The position numbers and the translations under genes are program-made. Positions 5,436 through 42,764 of a stretch of DNA of 64,000 nucleotides are shown piece by piece. Source of the DNA: a virus; the IMG/VR virus record IMGVR_UViG_3300046791_000470, positions 17,625 to 81,624 of that record. One strand, written 5' to 3'. The notes beneath the pieces are model-generated. The model was not told the origin of the DNA, ran no database searches, and was given only the letters and a program-made list of their open reading frames with translations. Each line of letters begins with the position of its first letter. Position 1 is the first letter of the stretch.

Positions 5436-5476
5436 GGGCGCCATGATGTATGGCGCCGCCCGTCAATTCAACGCGG
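5436..5476 (-). promoter_or_regulatory. sigma70-type promoter TTGAAT-17-CATCAT-7-ATG (leaderless geometry)
   Basis: -35 at 5471..5466 and -10 at 5448..5443. Shares CCGCGTTGAAT with the promoter at 6059-6069. Confidence 0.6.
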
Positions 5477-6029
5477 AGCTCGGCGGCTCACCTGAGGAGC
5501 CAGGGCGGACGAGCGAGACGGTGGCGACACCGGCCTTGTCGCCCGCGATGCCGCTGCCGGTGACGAGAATCGACATCGCGCAGGTGGCGGTGACCACGCT
5601 GTCCGGGATGGCCAGCTCGAGCACGACGGGGCCGGGGAAGAACGAGGGCGCCGTCACGGGCAGGGTCAGATCGACGTGCCGGGCGTGGCTCGACGAGGCC
5701 AGGCACTGCAGCTTCGCCGAGGCGTTCGCCGCGATGTTGCTGCGCTGGAGGTAGACCCGGAAGCTCTGGATGAAGTCGCCCACGCGGAGCTGCAGCGGGT
5801 AGCGCAGCGGGCGCGAACTCGTGCCGAGCACCCAGTGGTCGCCGTCGAAGGATGGCGCGAGCGGATCGCCGGTCGGCACGGCGGCCTGCGCGGGGTGCAG
5901 GATCTCCGTGAAGTAGGTATCCGGCGTGGGCTCCGCGACGATGGCGCCGGCGAGGGCGGCCTCAGAGTCATCGCAGGCCGGGCAGATGCTGAGCGCGAGG
6001 AGGAGCGGGATCAGGAGTCGGTTCGACAT
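5463..6029 (-). CDS. Lipoprotein of a dispersed phage lipoprotein family (fibre-like beta domain)
   Basis: Signal MSNRLLIPLLLALSICPAC; motif PSFDGDHW...LRYPLQLRVGD shared with 10555-11158 and 42243-42764. Confidence 0.8.
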   Translation of the reverse strand: MSNRLLIPLLLALSICPACDDSEAALAGAIVAEPTPDTYFTEILHPAQAAVPTGDPLAPSFDGDHWVLGTSSRPLRYPLQLRVGDFIQSFRVYLQRSNIAANASAKLQCLASSSHARHVDLTLPVTAPSFFPGPVVLELAIPDSVVTATCAMSILVTGSGIAGDKAGVATVSLVRPGSSGEPPSSALN

Positions 6030-8570: not shown

Positions 8571-9797
8571 CTAGGTGACGGGCCGGACGATGGCCGTGGC
8601 GCCGGTGATGTACCGCGTGGTGGCCGCGGCGCCGGTGGTGGTGAGCGAGATCCAGACCTTCTCGCCGGCCAGAACCTTGACCGGGATCTCGAGGGTCGTG
8701 AAGACGGGCGTCCACACCTGATCGCCGGCGCTGGCCGCCGAGGCGGCCGGATCGCTGAGCGTGTTCGTGCTGTTCGTGCCGGAGATGAGGGTGGCGACGA
8801 ACTGCGCCGCGGCGAGGCCCTGCGCCACCTCGAGCACCACGCCCTCGAGCACCTCGCCGGGATGCACCTTGAGCGGGATCAGGAGCGGCGCGGCGGCCAC
8901 GGTGTTGGCGTGCCAGCGACACGGCCCGGCGTCCGAGTGCCCGGCGAGGGTCCACGCGGCGCCGCTGTCGATCATGTCGAACGGCTGCGTGGTGCGGGTC
9001 TCCGTCGCGAACAGCGTCCCGTAGACGGTCCAGCGCCACGTCGCGCCGAAGACGTACGACACGCGGCCGACGACGCGCGGGTAGGTCCCAGCGGTGAGCG
9101 ACGGCTGGCCGGAGTCGTCCACGAACACGGCGTCCCCGATCGTCGGCGTCCCCGCGCCCGCGATCGGCGCGATCCCGAACACGCGGACGATCGCCAGCGC
9201 GCCGGCCGTGAGGACGCCCGGCTCCACGCCGTCGATGATCACGCCGAGCTGGCCGCGGACGGCATCCTCGGAGCCGGTGGCGGGGGTGATGACCGGCACC
9301 TCGTGGAGCCCGCTGACCGTCGTCGTCATACCGCTGACCTTGACGATGGTTCCGGCCGCGAGGCCGCCGGGGGTCTCGGCGGTGATGAGCGGGCCGCCGC
9401 ACGCCAGATCGTCGAGCGCCTTGATCATGTTGCGGTTCACCGCGAGCGCCCACCCCTTCACGGAGCTCGCCTCGGTGGTCTCGGACGCCGCGGGGATGCG
9501 CGCGTAGTCCAGCTCGCGGAGCACGCTGATCGCGCAGGTGTCGATCGCCTCGGAGCCGAGGCCGGCGTCCACCACGAGCCGGAGCTGGTAGGTGCCCTCC
9601 TTGAGCGGCGTGAACTGCGGGTTCTCGATCGTCGTGTTCGAGAGCGCGTCGGCGGCGCCCTCGGGCTGATCGACGATGCTCCACGCGTAGGAGACCTCGT
9701 CGCCCACGTCGTCGTTCGAGAGGAGCACGGGCGTGGCGGTCTGGACGTTCACGGCCGAGACGGAGACGGTGTTCACTTCGATTCTTGCTCTGGACAT
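8571..9797 (-). CDS. Tail fibre/receptor-binding protein with N-terminal PKD/Ig-like domain
   Basis: YAWSIVDQPEG...PQFTPLKEGTYQLRLVV (PKD-like), a fibre shaft, and a C-terminal beta-rich domain. Tail-distal position. Confidence 0.75.
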   Translation of the reverse strand: MSRARIEVNTVSVSAVNVQTATPVLLSNDDVGDEVSYAWSIVDQPEGAADALSNTTIENPQFTPLKEGTYQLRLVVDAGLGSEAIDTCAISVLRELDYARIPAASETTEASSVKGWALAVNRNMIKALDDLACGGPLITAETPGGLAAGTIVKVSGMTTTVSGLHEVPVITPATGSEDAVRGQLGVIIDGVEPGVLTAGALAIVRVFGIAPIAGAGTPTIGDAVFVDDSGQPSLTAGTYPRVVGRVSYVFGATWRWTVYGTLFATETRTTQPFDMIDSGAAWTLAGHSDAGPCRWHANTVAAAPLLIPLKVHPGEVLEGVVLEVAQGLAAAQFVATLISGTNSTNTLSDPAASAASAGDQVWTPVFTTLEIPVKVLAGEKVWISLTTTGAAATTRYITGATAIVRPVT

Positions 9798-9842: not shown

Positions 9843-10166
9843 TCAGGACGCCGCGGTCGCCGCAGCTTCGTCGCGCCGCGGCCGGCGCACGTAGCCGTCC
9901 CCGAGCTTCGTCGCGTGATCGCGCGCGATCAGCCACGCGATGGCGTCTGCGACCTGGTGGCGCTTCGTCGGTCCGCTCTCCGCCTCCACCAGCCGGATCA
10001 CCTGGATCTGCCGCTTGGGGATGGTCTCGTGGAGCTTCCCGAGGACGAGCGCCCGGAACCAGGACATCTCCTCGTCGGAGCGGACGGGTCGCGCGGCCTC
10101 GGCGGCGAGGCGCGCGGCTTGGGCCTTGAAGAATCGGGCGGCGGACGCGGCGGAGGTGTCGTGCAT
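9843..10166 (-). CDS. Small basic helical protein, paralogue of 10182-10496 (winged-helix-like)
   Basis: Shares DTSAASAARFF, RLVxAE, TxRHxVxxAIxWLxAR and GxGxVR with its neighbour. Confidence 0.7.
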   Translation of the reverse strand: MHDTSAASAARFFKAQAARLAAEAARPVRSDEEMSWFRALVLGKLHETIPKRQIQVIRLVEAESGPTKRHQVADAIAWLIARDHATKLGDGYVRRPRRDEAAATAAS

Positions 10167-10181: not shown

Positions 10182-10496
10182 TTACCGGGCGCCGCCCGTC
10201 AAGACAGAACAGGCAGCAGCGAGCGTCTCGCGCACGAAGCCTGCGCCCCGCCTGGCGAGCTCGCCGCGAGCTGCGAGCCAGTCGATCGCGTTCATGACGT
10301 GGTGCCGAGGCGTCCCGGGCCGCTCTGCGCAGACGAGGCGGAGCACCTCGGAGCGCCGGCGGGGGACGGTCGGATCGAACATCGCGAGCACCCACAGGCG
10401 GTACTCGTTAACCTCGTCGTCGGTGCGGTTCCCGCGGGCAGCGAGGAGCCTGAAGAACCGGGCCGCGGAGGCCGCCGACGTGTCGCGCTGTGACAT
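10182..10496 (-). CDS. Small basic helical protein, paralogue of 9843-10166
   Basis: Start MSQRDTSAASAARFF at 10496; clear tandem paralogy. Confidence 0.7.
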   Translation of the reverse strand: MSQRDTSAASAARFFRLLAARGNRTDDEVNEYRLWVLAMFDPTVPRRRSEVLRLVCAERPGTPRHHVMNAIDWLAARGELARRGAGFVRETLAAACSVLTGGAR

Positions 10497-10554
10497 GAGC
10501 GCCCACTCTCGCCTTTGCGGGGACACCCGGTCAACGGCAGTAAGCGGCAGCCGG

Positions 10555-11158
10555 TCAGTGTCGGATGTCGACTTCGGCATTCATGGCGCGGTCACCAGGC
10601 TGCCAGTTGCCGTACACCCTGATCGAGTAGGCAGTACCGGACTGCACCGGCACCGAGAGCCCGCCCGCTTCGAGGGTGACGATTCCGCTGGGGTGCGTCG
10701 TGGACACCTGATCGCCGATGGACTCGTGGTAGCCACGCACGCCAACGTGCTGCTCGAGGAACGCGGAGACGGGGTTCGGAGGTGTGCTTGTCGACGAACA
10801 CGCGGAACCCGACGATCGTGTCTCCGGCCTGCACGTGGAACGGGTACCGCACCGGGATCAGGCCGGTGCCGAACGTCCACGAGTTCCCGTCGAACACCGG
10901 GCCGTTCGCGTAGCCGGCACCAACGTGCCCTTCAGCCGCATCGATCTGGATCGAGATCGGCGCGGGCGGCGGGGGAGGAGGTGCCGGCTCACAGCACCCG
11001 TCCGCCGTGACACCGGCCGATTCGCAGATGGCGGGGCATCCGTCGTCCGCGGCGGTCTGTGTTTGGGAGCTGGTGGCGGTCGCCGTATCGGCGACGCAGG
11101 CGCCGGCCAGCGCGAGGAGGATGGCTGCGAGGGTGAACTTGATCGGTGGGCTGAACAT
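10555..11158 (-). pseudogene. Lipoprotein of the dispersed family, split by a +1 frameshift at the G4 run 10771-10774
   Basis: LLALAGAC lipobox and PVFDGNSW...VRYPFHVQAGD. Removing one C after TCC GAA CCC gives VSAFLEQH...YSIRVYGNWQPGDRAMNAEV, which aligns with the paralogues' C-termini. Confidence 0.75.
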
Positions 11159-11205: not shown

Positions 11206-11799
11206 TCAGAAGGCGGCGGCGCCGAACGTGAGCGAGCCGCTCGCCCAGATCATCGCGTCCTCGAGCGCCGGATCGGTGTCGTTCACCGTCCCGGTGTTCG
11301 TGATCATTCGCGAGATGATCCGGCCCTGGAGAGCCAGGGAGCCGAGCGGCGCGCTGATCGGCGGCGAAGCTGCGGCGAGCCGAGCTTGAACCAGCGCGTC
11401 CACCGTCACGAGCTGGCTGCCCATCCCGGCAGCCGCCTGGAGGCCGAGGCTCACCCGGTCGAGGTAGTCGTGGCCGTGGTTGTGCGCTGCGTGCAGCAGC
11501 ACGGTGCCGCCGTTGGTCTCATCCGCGCTGACCGCGTAGAACGAGGCGGCACCGCGGAGCCCGAGCTGGCCAAGACCGATCTGGACGCCGGCCGGTGCAT
11601 CGAGAGCCAGCGGTGTGATGATCGGAGAGCCGGCGTTCCACTGCACGCGCCAGGTGCCCGTGAAGTGAGCCGGGCCAGCGGCGTGGGGCGACACGACCGG
11701 CGATTGGACGATCGTGTCGGTGTCGTCGGTGACGCAGGCACCAGCGAGCGTCAGAAGGAGAAGGAGGGCCGCGGCGGGGATTTTCTGGTCGGTGGTCAT
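11206..11799 (-). CDS. Lipoprotein carrying a copy of the C-terminal domain of the adjacent tail fibre
   Basis: LLLLLTLAGAC lipobox. WRVQWNAG...LALDAPAG...LQGRIISR...TNTG...LEDA matches the C-terminus of 11853-13037. Confidence 0.9.
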   Translation of the reverse strand: MTTDQKIPAAALLLLLTLAGACVTDDTDTIVQSPVVSPHAAGPAHFTGTWRVQWNAGSPIITPLALDAPAGVQIGLGQLGLRGAASFYAVSADETNGGTVLLHAAHNHGHDYLDRVSLGLQAAAGMGSQLVTVDALVQARLAAASPPISAPLGSLALQGRIISRMITNTGTVNDTDPALEDAMIWASGSLTFGAAAF

Positions 11800-11852
11800 G
11801 TGCGTGTATTTCTAATCCACGCAAAACCAGATGGCTAGCCCTGCATGTATTC

Positions 11853-13037
11853 TTACGCCAGGTAAGATACCGTAGCGACTCCCTGAACGATTGCGTCCTC
11901 AAGCGAGGTGTCGGTGTTGTCCGAGGCGCCGGTGTTGGTCAGGTAGCGCGAGATGATCCGGCCCTGGAGAACCTTGGTTCCGATTCCCACGTCGATCGGC
12001 GGGGTTGCGGCTGCCAGCGCCGTCTGGAGGCTCGCATCGACCGTCGTCACCGGCACGCCAGTGCCAACCACACCCTGTAGGCCGATGGCGTACGCGTTGG
12101 TGTTCGAGTGTCCGGTCTGGTGTGATGCGGTCAGGTTGCAGGTGCCGCGCGTGATCTCGCCGCCGACGACGTAGAACGAACCAGCTCCGCGCAGCGACAG
12201 CGGCCCGAGCGCGACCTGAAGGCCGGCCGGCGCGTCGAGCGCGAGCAGGGTGTGGATCGGAGCCCCGGCGTTCCACTGGACGCGCCACGAGGCGCCCACG
12301 GGCAGCATGCCGCCATGGCCGAGCAGCGGGCGGCGGTCCACGAGCGCGTCCGTGTCGATCGTGACCACGCTCGGCGCGACGTTGATCCGTCCGATCTTGA
12401 CGTAGCCGGAGGTAGTCGACGGCTCGACCTCGGCGCCAGTAGCCGCCTCCGCGCCGATCTTGTAGCTGAGCCCCACCGTCGAGGCGCTCGGGCTGGAGAC
12501 GAAGCCGGTCCGGCCGTCGAGGCTGAACGCGAGCGTCTTGTAGAACATGTGGTCCAGGAAGGACTTCGTGGCCGTGTCGAGCTGTCGACGCGTCACCAGG
12601 TTCTCGAGCCGCCGGTCCACCTTGACCTCGATGATGTCGATGCGCGACAGGCCGGGGCCGGGCGCCGTCGGGACCGTGAAGATCGCAGGCGCGTTGAGGT
12701 AGACCGGCTTGAAGCTCGACCGATCGTCAACGCCCTCGAGGTCCGTCGCGCCGATGTCGAACGGCAGATCGAGCGCGTCGTAGATGAAGCCGAAGCCCGC
12801 ACTGACCTGCACGGACATCGCGATCGGGCTCGCGGGGACGACGCGCATCCCGTCGCCGATGAAGCCGCTGTGCGAGGTGATCGCGGAGGTGCCTCCACCG
12901 GCGACACCGGAGCCGCCGACGAGCGCGCGCAGCACGTCGCGGAGCGTCCGGTCGAGCTGCGACTCGAGGCGGTTGAAGTCGCTGGAAAGGGGCCGCTCGC
13001 GCAGGCCGAGATTGACGCGGTCAAATGGATTGTTCAC
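11853..13037 (-). CDS. Tail fibre / baseplate-proximal receptor-binding protein
   Basis: Directly follows the baseplate wedge genes. N-terminal baseplate-attachment-type region (RIDIIEVKVD) and a C-terminal beta domain. Confidence 0.75.
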   Translation of the reverse strand: MNNPFDRVNLGLRERPLSSDFNRLESQLDRTLRDVLRALVGGSGVAGGGTSAITSHSGFIGDGMRVVPASPIAMSVQVSAGFGFIYDALDLPFDIGATDLEGVDDRSSFKPVYLNAPAIFTVPTAPGPGLSRIDIIEVKVDRRLENLVTRRQLDTATKSFLDHMFYKTLAFSLDGRTGFVSSPSASTVGLSYKIGAEAATGAEVEPSTTSGYVKIGRINVAPSVVTIDTDALVDRRPLLGHGGMLPVGASWRVQWNAGAPIHTLLALDAPAGLQVALGPLSLRGAGSFYVVGGEITRGTCNLTASHQTGHSNTNAYAIGLQGVVGTGVPVTTVDASLQTALAAATPPIDVGIGTKVLQGRIISRYLTNTGASDNTDTSLEDAIVQGVATVSYLA

Positions 13038-14191: not shown

Positions 14192-15388
14192 TCACTGGAT
14201 CAGCGAGGCGGCCTGGCTCTGAAGGGTCGCCTGCGAGTCGAACGTGATGTTGGAGAGCGCGGTGCGGAGCACCTGGTACTTCGAGACCGGGATGATCGGG
14301 CCGACGGGCGAGGCCACCTCGTCGCCGAACGTCTCGAGGCCGGGCACGCCGCGCAGCAGCGTCGTGATCGCCGCCGGGTCGAACGTCGCGCCGGGCGCCA
14401 GCTCGTTGATGTGCTGCACCACCAGCACCCGCACGTAGAGCGCGAGCGCGTCGGTGTTGCTCACGTCGGCGGTGAACCGCAGCCGGAGCACGACCTGGAT
14501 CATCCGCACCGCCGCCACGACGACGGTCACCGGGATCCCATACGCCCGGTACTCGATGAGGGCGTTCTTCACGACGTGCGCGAGCGCCTGGCTCTGCGTC
14601 TCGTACGCCGGCACCTCGATCCCCTGCTTGACCAGCGCGTCCGTGAAGGCGTCCGCGATCACAAGCGTGACCGAGCGCGTCGGGTAGCCGTACGACTGCA
14701 ACCCCTCGAACGCGAGCACGCGCTGCACGCCGGGGACCGCGAGCGCGCCGGTCTCGATCGCGCCCTTGGTCCCGCGGCGCAGCGAGGCCCAGAAGCGCCG
14801 CCCGCGCGCCTTGTAGTCGTCGTCGCTCTCGACGTTCGCGGCGCCGCTCGAGGCTTCAGCGTTCGTCACCGTGAGCCCGACCGGCGACAGCTCGATGGAG
14901 GTCGTGATGCTCTTGATCGCCCCCGGCCCGATCGCCTGATCGATCCCCGCGAGCAGCGAGCGCGCGAGCACCTGAACCGGCCCGACGGAGGCCGCCGGAT
15001 AGGTCGTGGTGACGAGCGTCGTGAACTCGCGCCCGTCCGAGGTCGCCACGCGCGTCCCCGAGGGGATCGAGAACGCCACGCTGGGGGCCGGGCTGCACGA
15101 GAACTGGACGTAGACGAACGCCGGCGCGGCCGGCTTGCGGGTGAGTCCCCACCGATCGGACATCCACTTGTCGAGCTTCGCGCCGCGCGCCGAGTCGAGC
15201 CAGAAGCCCTCCTCCACGTCGGCGAGCTGGCCGATCACTTCCTCGCCGACGACGGCGGCGCCGGCGGCCATGATGTTCGCGTCGGTGCCGTCGCGATCCA
15301 CGGCGTTGACGGTCAGACGCTCCGATCGGCTCACCGCCTCGTCACGGAACGTGCGGTGGAAGTCGGCGAACTTCGGGAAGTCGGGCAC
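14192..15388 (-). CDS. Baseplate J / gp47-family protein
   Basis: WLDSARGAKLD...GLTRKPAAPA...VTNAEASSGAANVESDDDYKARGR...RRGTKGAIETGALAVPGV. Confidence 0.88.
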   Translation of the reverse strand: MPDFPKFADFHRTFRDEAVSRSERLTVNAVDRDGTDANIMAAGAAVVGEEVIGQLADVEEGFWLDSARGAKLDKWMSDRWGLTRKPAAPAFVYVQFSCSPAPSVAFSIPSGTRVATSDGREFTTLVTTTYPAASVGPVQVLARSLLAGIDQAIGPGAIKSITTSIELSPVGLTVTNAEASSGAANVESDDDYKARGRRFWASLRRGTKGAIETGALAVPGVQRVLAFEGLQSYGYPTRSVTLVIADAFTDALVKQGIEVPAYETQSQALAHVVKNALIEYRAYGIPVTVVVAAVRMIQVVLRLRFTADVSNTDALALYVRVLVVQHINELAPGATFDPAAITTLLRGVPGLETFGDEVASPVGPIIPVSKYQVLRTALSNITFDSQATLQSQAASLIQ

Positions 15389-16883: not shown

Positions 16884-18997
16884 GGGACGCCGAACTCCTC
16901 GTCCTCGTCGGCCCTGGCCTTGCCCACGGACACGGTGGGCTGGAGGTTCCGCGGGCGCGTGGGCTTGTCGCAGTTCGCGAGCGGACCTGCCTTGATACAG
17001 CCGGTTACGTTGCCCGCGTCGTAGTCGCCGAAGTTGTGATTTTCGGGCGCGGGTTCCTCGATCATCCGCGCGTTGAGGATCGAGGAGCTGCTCACCGGCG
17101 TGACCTTGGCCTTGTTGTGATCGCCCGCCTTGTCGACGGGGGCGGTCCGCACGATGCGCTTCTTTGGGATCTCCTGCGCCATCACGCCATGGCGCGGCAC
17201 GATGTAATTCTGGAACGCGATCGAGGTGCGGATGCCCGTGGACCACTCGTACTCGACGCCCGAGACCTGGTAGACGGCGAGCAGCTCGTGCACCGCGCCG
17301 CGCGCGAGCGCGACCAGCGCGCGCGCCACCAGCCGATCGCCGAGGCGCCGGTGGAGCACGTCCACCTCCTCCGAGAACGTGCGCCGCGCGGCGTCGTTCA
17401 CCTCGGACACGACGGGCGCGATCGAGCGCAGCGCCGTCGCGTCCACCACGAACTCGATCGGCTCGGTGGGGCGCAGGCGCAGGATGTCCGGATCGGTGTT
17501 GTCGCCGCCGAACGTCGCCAGGTTCCGGGTCTCGGCCTGGCCGCCGGTCTCGCCGCGGCCGATCTCCTCGTAGATGCCGTGTGCGATCCGCGTGAGCTGC
17601 TCCACCGATCGCACGCCGTACATCGGCACGCGGAGCACCTCGTCGGCGCCCTTGGTCTTCGCGGTCACGGTGTCGGTGGTGGGCCACTGCCCGAAGATCA
17701 GCCGCTGCTTACCGGCCGCGCGATCGTCGTACGAGATGCACTGGATGGTAGGGACCACGGCGCCGGCGAACTTCCGCTCAAACGAGAGCCGCTTCACGTC
17801 GCGGCCATACACCAGCCGGCGGATCCGGATCGACTCGCTGCCGACCTGACGCGCGAGCCCGCCGGCGAACGGCGTGGCGATCGTGGAGCGCTTCGAGGCG
17901 ATGTCGAAGATCCGCCGCACGGGCCGGATCCACAGCGTGGAGCCGACGATCTGAGGCATCGCGCCGACGATCGTGCAGTAGTTCGTGATGAGGTCCCAGT
18001 AGCTCGTCTTGTTGCCGGTGGACGGCGTGGAGCTCGAGCCACCGCCGGCGGCCTTCTGGCGCACGCGCGTCATGCCCTCGGCGTCGCCCGGGGACGGCAC
18101 CTCGCCGTCCTCCCACTCGGCGGTGTCGACGGCGACCGCCATGCGGAGATCCGCGTCGGTGCCCATCGTCCGGAGGATCTGCTGGACCACCTCGTGGATC
18201 GGCTTGGTGAGATCGAGCGCCGAGATCTTGGCGGGCGGCGGCTTGCCATCGATGAGGATGCCGCGGATGTCCCGGCCCTTGATCTGGATCGTCGAGCGCC
18301 CCTCGTCGAGGTCCACGCTCCACGTGTCGGCGGTCCCGTAGAACAGCAGGGTGGCGTTGTTGACGCCGGCGCGGCCGGTCACCGGGTCTACCTGATCTGT
18401 CGTCGTCTTGAGGATCGAGAACGGGCGCCCGGTCGGATCCTTGTCGCCACGCATGCCGCGCGCGTAGTCGTCGGCGGACACCGTGCCGAGGTGGATCTCG
18501 ACGCCCACGGCCCGGATCATCCGCGGGTCCACCGGGAACTCGAGGAAGTCGAACACGAGCGTGAAGGTGGCGGCGGTGCGGATGTGCGGCAGCGTGAACA
18601 CGCCGCGCTTCGGAACGCGGTTGGCGATCACCGTGAAACGATCCGTGCCGTACGTGAGCGGCACGCCGTCACCCGGCCGGCCTGGGATGTCGCCGCCGGT
18701 GACCGCCGGAGAGTCGTTGCCCGGCAGCCCCACCGCCGAGAACTCCGGCCGGGTCTCGTCGAGCTCGGCCAGCGCGTCGTTCGCGATCGCGCGCGCCACG
18801 CCGATGGTCACCGTCGGCTCGTGGACGCCGCGGCGCGGGCGCTTGCCCTGCTGGGCACGGCTCTCCTGCGTCGTGGCGTCGATCTGGCGCGCCGTGACGG
18901 ACTCGCCGGTGCCCGAGATCTGGAGGCTCTCGTCGAAGCGGATCGTGAGCTTCACGACGCAGCTCGGGAACCACGAGTTGTCCAGCGGGTTCATCAT
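16880..18997 (-). CDS. Baseplate hub protein (gpD/gp44-like)
   Basis: Start MMNPLDNSW at 18997 with ATGA overlap. TIQIKGRDIRGILID...YWDLITNYC...LWIRP; position between the LysM-like gene and the spike. Confidence 0.75.
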   Translation of the reverse strand: MMNPLDNSWFPSCVVKLTIRFDESLQISGTGESVTARQIDATTQESRAQQGKRPRRGVHEPTVTIGVARAIANDALAELDETRPEFSAVGLPGNDSPAVTGGDIPGRPGDGVPLTYGTDRFTVIANRVPKRGVFTLPHIRTAATFTLVFDFLEFPVDPRMIRAVGVEIHLGTVSADDYARGMRGDKDPTGRPFSILKTTTDQVDPVTGRAGVNNATLLFYGTADTWSVDLDEGRSTIQIKGRDIRGILIDGKPPPAKISALDLTKPIHEVVQQILRTMGTDADLRMAVAVDTAEWEDGEVPSPGDAEGMTRVRQKAAGGGSSSTPSTGNKTSYWDLITNYCTIVGAMPQIVGSTLWIRPVRRIFDIASKRSTIATPFAGGLARQVGSESIRIRRLVYGRDVKRLSFERKFAGAVVPTIQCISYDDRAAGKQRLIFGQWPTTDTVTAKTKGADEVLRVPMYGVRSVEQLTRIAHGIYEEIGRGETGGQAETRNLATFGGDNTDPDILRLRPTEPIEFVVDATALRSIAPVVSEVNDAARRTFSEEVDVLHRRLGDRLVARALVALARGAVHELLAVYQVSGVEYEWSTGIRTSIAFQNYIVPRHGVMAQEIPKKRIVRTAPVDKAGDHNKAKVTPVSSSSILNARMIEEPAPENHNFGDYDAGNVTGCIKAGPLANCDKPTRPRNLQPTVSVGKARADEDEEFGVP

Positions 18998-36938: not shown

Positions 36939-37475
36939 TCAGATCGGGTGGTCGTAGGTCAGCCGCACGGCGCCGATGCAGAGCCCGGCCTGGTCCGCGG
37001 CGAGCTCGAACCAGTGCACGGCGCCGCCCTCGACGATCGTGTCCACCAGATCGAACGGCACGTCGTGCCACAGGTCCGGCACGTTGAAGACCGAGACCGG
37101 AGCCAGTGGACCGGGCACGCTGCCGCCGTTCGGGGCGATGCTGACCGACCGGATCGCCAGATCGGCCGAGCGGTTGCCGGCCATCGCGATCGTCATCGAC
37201 AGCATCCGATCGCCCTCGACGAGGGTTGGCAGGACGGCGAACCGGCCGGCGCCGTAGCTCAGCATGCAGCCGTCGGAGGTGCCCGTGAAGCCGTTGAAAT
37301 CCGGCGTCCAGTTGGTGTGCACGACACCACCGATCGCGCTGATCACCTCGGTGGCCGGCGGTTTGGGCGCGGGCGGCGGCGCGACGGCCTGATCCGGCGG
37401 CGCGGCGGTGGCGCTCGGCGTGGCCGTGCAGGCGGGGGCGAGGAGGAGGGCGAGGAACAGAAGGGAGGCGCGCAT
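36939..37475 (-). CDS. Lipoprotein, more distant member of the fibre-like-domain family
   Basis: MRASLLFLALLLAPAC lipobox, Pro linker, LPTLVEGDRMLSM...IGAVRLTYDHP. Confidence 0.75.
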   Translation of the reverse strand: MRASLLFLALLLAPACTATPSATAAPPDQAVAPPPAPKPPATEVISAIGGVVHTNWTPDFNGFTGTSDGCMLSYGAGRFAVLPTLVEGDRMLSMTIAMAGNRSADLAIRSVSIAPNGGSVPGPLAPVSVFNVPDLWHDVPFDLVDTIVEGGAVHWFELAADQAGLCIGAVRLTYDHPI

Positions 37476-42242: not shown

Positions 42243-42764
42243 ATGTTCCGACTCCTGAGCGCGCTCGTCGTCCTCCTCGCCGCCTGCAATCAGCCCGATC
42301 TCCACTCGGAGCCGAGCGCGCTCATCGCCCCGGCGCCCCCGCCCGCCGGCACCCTCACGATCCTACCGATCAGCCCGGCGGCTGCGATCACTACGGCCTT
42401 CGGTCCCTCGTGGGACGGCGATGTCTGGTCCATCACCAAGAGCGGCGACGCGCTCCGATACCCGGTGCCGGTGATCGTCGGCGACACCCTCACGGAGTGG
42501 GCCGTGTTCGCGCGCCGATCCACGGTGGGCGCCGTCCTGTCGGCGCAGCTACAGGTGTTCGACGCGGTGGACCTGCGTCACTACGACGTTGGGCCGATGG
42601 TCACGAACGGCGATCCGGTCACCGGCTACTTCCCGCTCGAGACCGCGATCCCGCCGGTGTTCGTGCACGAGGACTTCTCGGTCTCGGTGCTCGTGATCGG
42701 CGAGGGCACGCCCGGCGACATCGTGGGGACCGCGAACGTTTACGTGATGCGGCAGTGGCAGTGA
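42243..42764 (+). CDS. Lipoprotein of the dispersed family, inserted against local gene orientation
   Basis: MFRLLSALVVLLAAC lipobox; PSWDGDVW...LRYPVPVIVGD...SAQL...SVLVIGEGTPGD. Confidence 0.8.
   Translation: MFRLLSALVVLLAACNQPDLHSEPSALIAPAPPPAGTLTILPISPAAAITTAFGPSWDGDVWSITKSGDALRYPVPVIVGDTLTEWAVFARRSTVGAVLSAQLQVFDAVDLRHYDVGPMVTNGDPVTGYFPLETAIPPVFVHEDFSVSVLVIGEGTPGDIVGTANVYVMRQWQ

Follow-up and report, generated by a model that had tools for sequence, protein, structure and literature searches.

The Cor lipoproteins of phages T1, phi80, N15 and HK022 are superinfection-exclusion lipoproteins encoded at the locus of the receptor-binding protein (RBP), and Ltp, which is surface-exposed on a Gram-positive host, targets the injection step via the tape-measure protein and is not known to copy any part of an RBP. 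In Streptococcus thermophilus phage TP-J34, Ltp is described as a phage-encoded envelope lipoprotein that acts against incoming phage (PMC3952083). Exclusion lipoproteins beside RBP genes are already known; in T5 the gene for Llp directly follows the RBP gene pb5, and Llp, the solved example, is a small mature protein of 61 residues with a disulphide that is unrelated to pb5, periplasmic and allosteric on the inner face of FhuA (PMC9586334). The literature searched contained exclusion lipoproteins of the Llp, Cor and Ltp kinds, and none was described as an RBP copy. Here we analyse a stretch of 64,000 nucleotides (the window; positions 17,625 to 81,624) of the virus record IMGVR_UViG_3300046791_000470, in which the gene next to that of a tail fibre-like RBP encodes a predicted lipoprotein whose body is a diverged copy of the head of that RBP.

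The record is an 87.5-kb linear IMG/VR virus from soil (CheckV completeness 68%, about 70% G+C), and a near-identical phage is contained in a second study's rhizosphere metagenome. Two open reading frames (ORFs) form the locus, 11853-13037(-), which encodes the 394-amino-acid (aa) fibre, and 11206-11799(-), which encodes the 197-aa lipoprotein and begins 53 bp downstream of the RBP gene. BLASTP aligned residues 16-192 of the lipoprotein with residues 218-392 of the fibre at 84/177 identities (47%, E 1e-47). When the count is confined to the domain itself, 50% of 154 aligned positions, or 75/149 positions, are identical, and the lipoprotein matches the head profile at E 2e-64. A sequence-only reading of the window had drawn attention to this match, and its count by eye of 75 identities agrees with the computed figure; it had also reported a 24-bp stretch common to both genes, and 11309-11332 is indeed exactly identical to 11947-11970 and is the longest exact word that the copies share. 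DNA identity of the two copies is 67% over 403 nt, and the 24-bp identity is probably a conserved motif under strong codon bias and not a recombination site. The linker of the lipoprotein also aligns, loosely, to the fibre segment ahead of the head (VTDDTDTIV versus VTIDTDALV). The head domain occurs twice only in the whole record, in the fibre and in the lipoprotein, and the latter lacks fibre residues 1-217, that is, the baseplate-docking shoulder, so that it cannot be a virion fibre. The features of the locus are as follows.

12318-13037, minus strand: N-terminal shoulder of the RBP ('fibre'), aa 1 to about 240, conserved across the family.
11853-12311, minus strand: C-terminal head (tip) of the RBP, aa about 243-394, the domain that is copied.
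11800-11852, minus strand: spacer of 53 bp from the fibre stop to the lipoprotein start, A+T-richer (G+C 0.47).
11734-11799, minus strand: signal peptide and lipobox of the lipoprotein, aa 1-22, by the PS51257 rule; the Cys22 codon is 11734-11736.
11665-11733, minus strand: acidic, Pro-rich linker between anchor and domain, aa 23 to about 45, read from the sequence.
11206-11664, minus strand: copy of the RBP head, aa about 46-197 plus the stop codon, by the BLASTP match at E 1e-47.
11309-11332, no strand assigned: 24-bp stretch identical to 11947-11970 by exact match, encoding LQGRIISR.
10555-11158, minus strand: lip2, a second lipoprotein gene, frameshifted near 10785 and not a head copy, from its frames, lipobox and paralogy.

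The N-terminus of the 197-aa protein, MTTDQKIPAAALLLLLTLAGA followed by Cys22, satisfies a regular-expression version of PROSITE rule PS51257, with a Lys (K6) within the first seven residues and a hydrophobic core of mean Kyte-Doolittle hydropathy 2.4 across the 12 residues preceding the cysteine. Cys22 is the sole cysteine of the protein, and its predicted lipidation would give a mature lipoprotein of 176 residues, counting Cys22 itself. The lipoprotein signal proposed in the sequence-only reading was borne out in this way, and a signal is retained in every homologue: of the six head-copy lipoproteins, that of the window and those of related phages, five satisfy PS51257 and one narrowly fails it, all six have the lipobox Cys, and what is preserved is the signal and not its sequence. 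One explanation for the ORF is that it is a decaying partial duplicate and not a working lipoprotein, as the neighbouring lip2 is frameshifted and the G+C content at third codon positions (GC3) of the lipoprotein gene, 0.86, is slightly below that of core genes. However, the reading frame is intact in six phages whose lipoproteins are 40-85% identical (56-85% for pairs of the same architecture, short or long), the signal is conserved, the model folds with confidence, the ratio of nonsynonymous to synonymous substitution rates (dN/dS) is below 1, and segments 11220-11370 and 11487-11763 of the gene (lip1) are identical in the second study's contigs; decay is accordingly very improbable. That ORF 11206-11799 is a separate functional gene, made up of an export signal, a short linker and a diverged head copy, is well supported.

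The locus resembles those of T5 Llp and the Cor proteins in that a lipoprotein gene lies directly beside the RBP gene and in that the role we propose is to make a receptor unavailable. It differs in that the window protein has 176 mature residues and no second Cys, is homologous to the RBP head and is a predicted trimer, and the features of the Llp/Cor family (about 60-80 aa in the mature form, an intramolecular disulphide, sequence similarity) were not found in it. Ltp is likewise a phage-encoded envelope lipoprotein, but no sequence relation between it and the window lipoprotein was found. Nor did the latter give any Pfam or PHROG match to an exclusion family or a tail-assembly family. What appears to be new here is an RBP-locus lipoprotein, with a putative exclusion role, that is built by self-mimicry and exchanged with the tip.

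The identity of the copied domain is central to any reading of the locus. The tail and baseplate module lies on the minus strand, from about 19258 down to 11853, and ends with the genes, in this order, of Baseplate_J (14192-15388(-), a baseplate-wedge protein; Pfam E 8e-21, PHROG 6 E 2e-41), of a wedge-like protein of 380 aa and of the 394-aa RBP; with its Baseplate_J protein, the baseplate is of the contractile-tail type. The fibre has 77 database relatives of about 385-400 aa, all metagenomic, in which the N-terminal 240 residues are conserved and the C-terminal 150 are variable, with Gly-rich tips instead in some; the head is the most variable part of a 39-sequence alignment of the family, and the window fibre and a relative on contig L003 are 88% identical in the shoulder and 60% in the head. 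An AlphaFold2 (AF2) model of the fibre has two domains (mean predicted local distance difference test score, pLDDT, 89; predicted template modelling score, pTM, 0.87). Residues 3-243 resemble the cyanophage A-1(L) fibre (Z 6.7), TssK (Z 6.5), the HFTV1 fibre (Z 6.0) and the shoulder of the p2 RBP (Z 5.1), whereas the head is a beta-sandwich closest to WSSV VP37 (Z 8.1), then PRD1 P5 (Z 5.3) and TNF/C1q (Z about 4). Taken as a whole, the chain is similar to the RBP of lactococcal phage 1358 (4l92; Foldseek E 2.6e-3, VIA Z 7.3 over 250 residues), and Foldseek against the PDB gave nothing for the whole fibre at E 0.001 or better. As these fold scores are middling, they were used for architecture only. 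The RBPs of 1358 and p2 and the TssK shoulder share the overall plan and size of the 394-aa protein but only 8-14% of its sequence at middling scores, and the window phage has a baseplate of the contractile-tail type; we know of no lipoprotein copy of the head in phages 1358 and p2.

Only 52 proteins with the head came out of an exhaustive profile search across 1.84 billion representatives. Most of these are fibres, and the less typical ones are proteins with collagen stalks, truncated fibre fragments and lipoproteins of about 335 aa. P0105 (217 aa) and P0093 combine the head with a stalk of collagen-like Gly-X-Y repeats, a different fibre design with the same tip. When three copies of the lipoprotein domain were modelled together, a homotrimer was predicted with an ipSAE of 0.94, the best control reaching 0.00; the mark used for this score is reached by 20/30 solved homomers and by 1/23 solved single chains. 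Conservation of the predicted interface was no different from that of the rest of the domain (43% versus 55%). The reading of the copied part as the distal head agrees with two independent observations, its occurrence on collagen stalks and the predicted trimer. It is well supported that ORF 11853-13037 encodes a baseplate-attached RBP with a conserved docking shoulder and a variable beta-sandwich head, predicted to be trimeric; the fibre is best described as a short shoulder-plus-head RBP, and the duplicated part as its distal head. From the family alignment, the AF2 model and the fold matches, the shared domain is this variable head and not a domain for baseplate contact or a chaperone, in keeping with the sequence-only reading, which had taken it for the receptor-binding end. 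We note a His-rich motif, H-x-H-G-H-D-[YF]-x-D-R, at window positions 11480-11500 (lipoprotein aa about 64-76), which is present in all lipoprotein heads and in some fibre heads (L004, L042) and is altered in the window's own fibre. It falls within the predicted trimer interface and, on the model, might be a metal site on the three-fold axis. In another relative, L048 (3282-5047), two tandem paralogous fibre genes replace the fibre and lipoprotein, the second of them cut at the contig end.

Head-copy lipoproteins are found next to the RBP gene in six phages, including that of the window. A word-indexed search of 5.8 billion proteins gave one relative of similar length, P0002 (54% identity), encoded just after a 77%-identical fibre on the 52-kb contig L003; in other relatives the lipoprotein is longer, at about 335 aa, and consists of lipobox, a 150-aa domain that we call domain X, and the head copy. 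The RBP and lipoprotein genes are co-directional in the window, L003 and L041 and convergent in L004, L044 and L042/43, with 3' ends that abut or overlap, and the lipoprotein gene was adjacent to the RBP gene in 11/11 related loci examined. Among 38 related fibre loci, a second head copy was present in the window, L003 and L004 only. A tree of 45 heads places every lipoprotein head, together with the partner fibres, in a single clade of 12 members (support 97/91), within which the short lipoproteins form one clade and the long ones another (both 100/99). Between the window and L003, the number of nonsynonymous substitutions per site (dN, by NG86) was 0.09 for the shoulder, 0.34 for the fibre head and 0.34 for the lipoprotein head, and between L004 and L044 the corresponding values were 0.07, 0.08 and 0.09; by these counts the two heads diverge in step. 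The dN/dS values (NG86) were 0.05-0.6, below 1 throughout, and 0.52 for the lipoprotein head against its L003 orthologue, dS being unreliable at a GC3 of about 0.9. On such substitution counts we regard purifying selection on the genes as established. The two heads of a locus show no concerted evolution.

These data bear on a second suggestion of the sequence-only reading, that the copy is kept as a recombination donor. In this explanation the lipoprotein gene would be a host-range reservoir or switch, a silent store of sequence that reaches the fibre tip by recombination, inversion or mutagenic homing, and the adjacency of the copies, the 24-bp identity and the tail-to-tail layout of several relatives, which recalls the G segment of Mu and the C segment of P1, are all consistent with it. 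The Mu and P1 segments and the cassettes of fibre tip and chaperone resemble the present locus in that a variable fibre C-terminus and a neighbouring gene are exchanged as a unit and in that alternative copies lie tail to tail; here, however, no long inverted repeats were found and no invertase was noticed, and the gene beside the fibre has a start of its own and encodes an exported lipoprotein, which sets it apart from both an alternative exon and a cytoplasmic chaperone. The copies are only 67% identical in DNA, the convergent loci have no long inverted repeats, translation of the gene begins at a separate start codon, its lipoprotein signal is conserved, the long forms add a 150-aa carbohydrate-binding module (CBM)-like domain, and the dN/dS range given above holds for the gene. 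Furthermore, the mismatch spectrum covers all four bases, unlike that of a diversity-generating retroelement, no invertase or reverse transcriptase was noticed near any locus in the Pfam lists of neighbouring genes, and no fibre-lipoprotein chimeras or inversion junctions were present in the contigs. We gave up the donor idea on these grounds and consider a reservoir role highly unlikely. Two specific forms are not supported either: an invertible or shufflon-type cassette, given the direct orientation in the window, the lack of long inverted repeats in convergent relatives and the separate start and signal, and a diversity-generating retroelement target, given 124 mismatches spread over all four bases and no reverse transcriptase in Pfam scans of neighbouring genes.

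The long lipoproteins led to a wider family. A search with domain X gave 13 more lipoproteins of 293-339 aa, for a family total of 15. Their signal, domain X and the junction PGPSTVPSMTG are conserved, whereas the C-terminal domains beyond the junction are unrelated. All 15 have the lipobox Cys, and 10/10 of the domain-X loci examined are next to the last tail gene. In the AF2 model of the L004 lipoprotein (pLDDT 86), domain X is a CBM-like beta-sandwich, matching best a porphyran CBM (Z 12.3), then CBM22, 15, 36 and 6, with 85 chains at Z 8 or more; hhalign of domain X against a family of other lipoproteins of the window phage (lip2, lipA and lipB, described below) gave 57% probability over 21 columns. 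Six further domain-X loci, L049 (with a near-duplicate, L050), L051-L054 and L057, are all tail to tail with the last tail gene and belong to phages with other backbones, with Mu-like Gp48 baseplates and long fibres. At three of these, the lipoprotein C-terminal domain matches the neighbouring tail tip: L052 at 35% over 138 aa (E 7e-18), L057 at 30% over 149 aa (E 6e-13) and L051 at 33% over 90 aa (E 4e-7). Taking the six head-copy loci and the six further domain-X loci together, the lipoprotein C-terminal domain matches the adjacent RBP tip in 9/12 loci and in three unrelated tip types.

Comparison of closely related phages indicates how these modules change. L051 and L052 are 97% identical in DNA either side of a single replaced segment of about 0.9 kb, and that segment is exactly the lipoprotein C-terminal domain plus the tip of the tail protein; L049 and L057 have a common fibre shaft (73% identity) with different tips and different lipoprotein C-termini. 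We take both comparisons to mean that the tip and the lipoprotein domain are inherited and exchanged as one cassette, and it is well supported that head copy and RBP tip are one hereditary unit, adjacent, both fast-evolving and replaced together in related phages. The sequence-only reading had asked for a test of co-variation between the lipoprotein domain and the fibre tip across related phages, and such co-variation holds for the type of module and for the one-cassette exchange between near-identical phages; within the tip type of the window, a lipoprotein is no closer to its own tip than to others. For that tip type, the Mantel correlation between lipoprotein and fibre tip was r 0.53, a value reached by 35/720 permutations and not phylogenetically independent.

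Another possibility is that the neighbour is a tip-specific assembly factor like Mu U, P2 G or T4 gp38, which helps the tip to fold or sits on it. Known pairs of fibre and chaperone genes are adjacent and are exchanged as a cassette with the tip, as here. To our knowledge, however, tail-fibre assembly proteins reside in the cytoplasm and do not copy the tip, while 21/21 of our proteins have an export signal in which the lipobox Cys never varies, and this would take the protein out of the compartment in which fibres fold. There is also the lack of any Pfam or PHROG tail-assembly match, and we give an assembly role very little credence.

We propose that the envelope-tethered copy of the RBP head occupies the receptor and so brings about superinfection exclusion; this is the most likely function, at a little short of an even chance in our judgement. 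After infection, or from a resident phage genome, the protein would be exported by the Sec pathway, lipidated at Cys22 and tethered to an envelope membrane, where it would form a trimer and bind the same kind of ligand as the RBP head. The ligand would probably be an envelope glycan, because of the CBM-like domain in the longer relatives and the RBP plan of the 1358/p2 type. With the receptor occupied or sequestered, adsorption of further phages of the same receptor class would be stopped and progeny would not be lost on debris. The role would be that of Llp for T5, reached by copying the phage's own binding domain and not via an unrelated small lipoprotein.

A number of observations weigh against receptor occupation. 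As T5 Llp illustrates (PMC9586334), a protein anchored in the periplasm has no access to the outside of a surface receptor, so that the proposal requires the lipoprotein to be exposed at the surface, the host to be monoderm, or the receptor to travel through the periplasm. No lipoprotein groups with its own fibre on the tree of 45 heads, a placement that makes the duplication old, and each lipoprotein head shares 43-52% identity with the tip of its own fibre and is no nearer to it than to the tips of other phages, from which it follows that the pair may no longer share a ligand. No tip match was detectable at L049, L053 and L054 (3/12 loci), fibre P0082 (locus L045), placed weakly beside this tip clade, is without a lipoprotein, and co-variation of a tip and a neighbouring gene is also the signature of tip-specific assembly chaperones. 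The 53-bp spacer of the window has no consensus sigma-70 promoter, no terminator and no evident Shine-Dalgarno sequence, the missing promoter being the point of concern, and none of the RNA runs searched contains the sequence. For a resident phage, no lysogeny genes were noticed in a scan that covered part of the genome, and the RBP, the baseplate J protein and domain X had no prophage relatives in a set of 185,579 species with one genome per species.

Several of these points would suit an envelope protein that has gained a new ligand. An old duplication would have given rise to a copy now unrelated to the receptor, with a role such as lysis, remodelling of the envelope or defence against other elements, and its co-inheritance with the tip would be linkage. 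The modest identity to the own fibre tip without cognate preference, the separate clades of the lipoprotein heads, the unmatched C-terminal domains at three loci and the presence of four more lipoprotein genes of unassigned role in the phage are in its favour. It does not account well for three unrelated tip types each being mirrored by a matching lipoprotein domain, or for divergence of equal amount in fibre head and lipoprotein head, and the joint swap between L051 and L052 would be surprising if the lipoprotein had no functional link to RBP specificity. We regard a new ligand as unlikely.

Perhaps instead the infected cell displays the lipoprotein as an adhesin or envelope glycan binder, which binds the receptor glycan on neighbouring cells or matrix, tethers hosts or anchors envelope and progeny, and so promotes spread where receptor occupation would block entry. 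The same facts fit (an exported head copy, a predicted trimer, a CBM-like domain in the long forms and cassette co-variation), and the data do not tell binding in cis from binding in trans. Such an adhesin depends on surface exposure, however, it has no phage precedent in the literature searched, and the RBP-adjacent position is the classical place of exclusion lipoproteins (PMC9586334); it seems to us quite unlikely. Receptor occupation by the head copy could also be part of something more general, a two-part specificity cassette found in several unrelated phage lineages, in which the RBP tip is accompanied by a lipoprotein copy that saturates or sequesters the virion's own receptor, often with a glycan-binding module. 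That this is a general form of exclusion by self-mimicry, distinct from Llp/Cor and Ltp, we offer tentatively, as a reading that may well prove too broad.

With regard to expression, most lipoprotein genes of the relatives have their own A+T-richer upstream region of 200-540 bp with a ribosome-binding site, and many run against the tail operon, which suggests an independent transcription unit. The convergent RBP and lipoprotein genes overlap at their 3' ends by 14 bp in L004 (2142-2155), L044 (6864-6877) and L051 (10983-10996), which leaves no room for a terminator, so that transcription of one gene must enter the other. Upstream of the domain-X lipoprotein genes of the Mu-like phages, two conserved stem-loops, AAGGTGC..GCACCTT and GGCTCTC..GAGAGCC, precede the ribosome-binding site (L051 about 9880-10000, with equivalents in L052 and L053), the first of which has an apparently compensatory variant in L053; the pair may be a regulatory leader.

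The window phage encodes further lipobox proteins. In lip2 (10555-11158(-)) the lipobox LALAGA-C agrees with the PS51257 rule and is followed by a Cys-rich linker. The frameshift region is identical in the second study's contigs, a low-depth contig having an extra 2-nt deletion at 10933, and lip2 is probably a decaying pseudogene. It has paralogues at 5463-6029(-) (E 6e-14) and 42243-42764(+) (E 7e-9), the dispersed lipoprotein genes lipA, lipB and lip2 being related to one another at E 1e-19 to 7e-9, and a further lipobox protein, lipC, completes the set of coordinates 5463-6029(-), 42243-42764(+), 10555-11158(-) and 36939-37475(-). None of lipA, lipB, lip2 and lipC resembles a virion protein by sequence. 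That lip2 might be a copy of the tip of a second fibre, the PKD-domain protein at 8571-9797, was considered and rejected, as BLASTP and tblastn against the whole record gave nothing. In relative L046, a lipoprotein gene of the lip2 family is convergent to the fibre gene. Two small paralogues with a common TSAASAARFF motif, 9843-10166(-) and 10182-10580(-), are located between the PKD-domain protein and the lipoprotein genes and by eye are possibly winged-helix proteins; one homologue is found at the same position in L003 (10820-11104).

No cultured relative of the locus was found. A scan of viral contigs with the single protein gave no relatives, an alignment-based scan did give matches, and there were no relatives among 50,697 deposited phage genomes. 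The sole fibre match in species-representative genomes was on an 83-kb contig binned in a metagenome-assembled genome of an uncultured member of the Bdellovibrionales, and this contig may itself be a phage contig.

That a head-copy lipoprotein is exchanged together with the tip suggests that the phage acts on the host receptor from within the infected cell in a manner not yet described. If receptor occupation by the copied head is correct, host range and the matching self-exclusion would change together in a single recombination event, a solution different from that of T5 Llp and predictable from sequence alone. It would also make RBP tips, and the exclusion proteins paired with them, recognisable in uncultured phages, and would yield soluble receptor-binding modules with which unknown hosts in soil could be tagged. 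For phage engineering in laboratory host-range work, a tip that is swapped without its partner may carry a cost.

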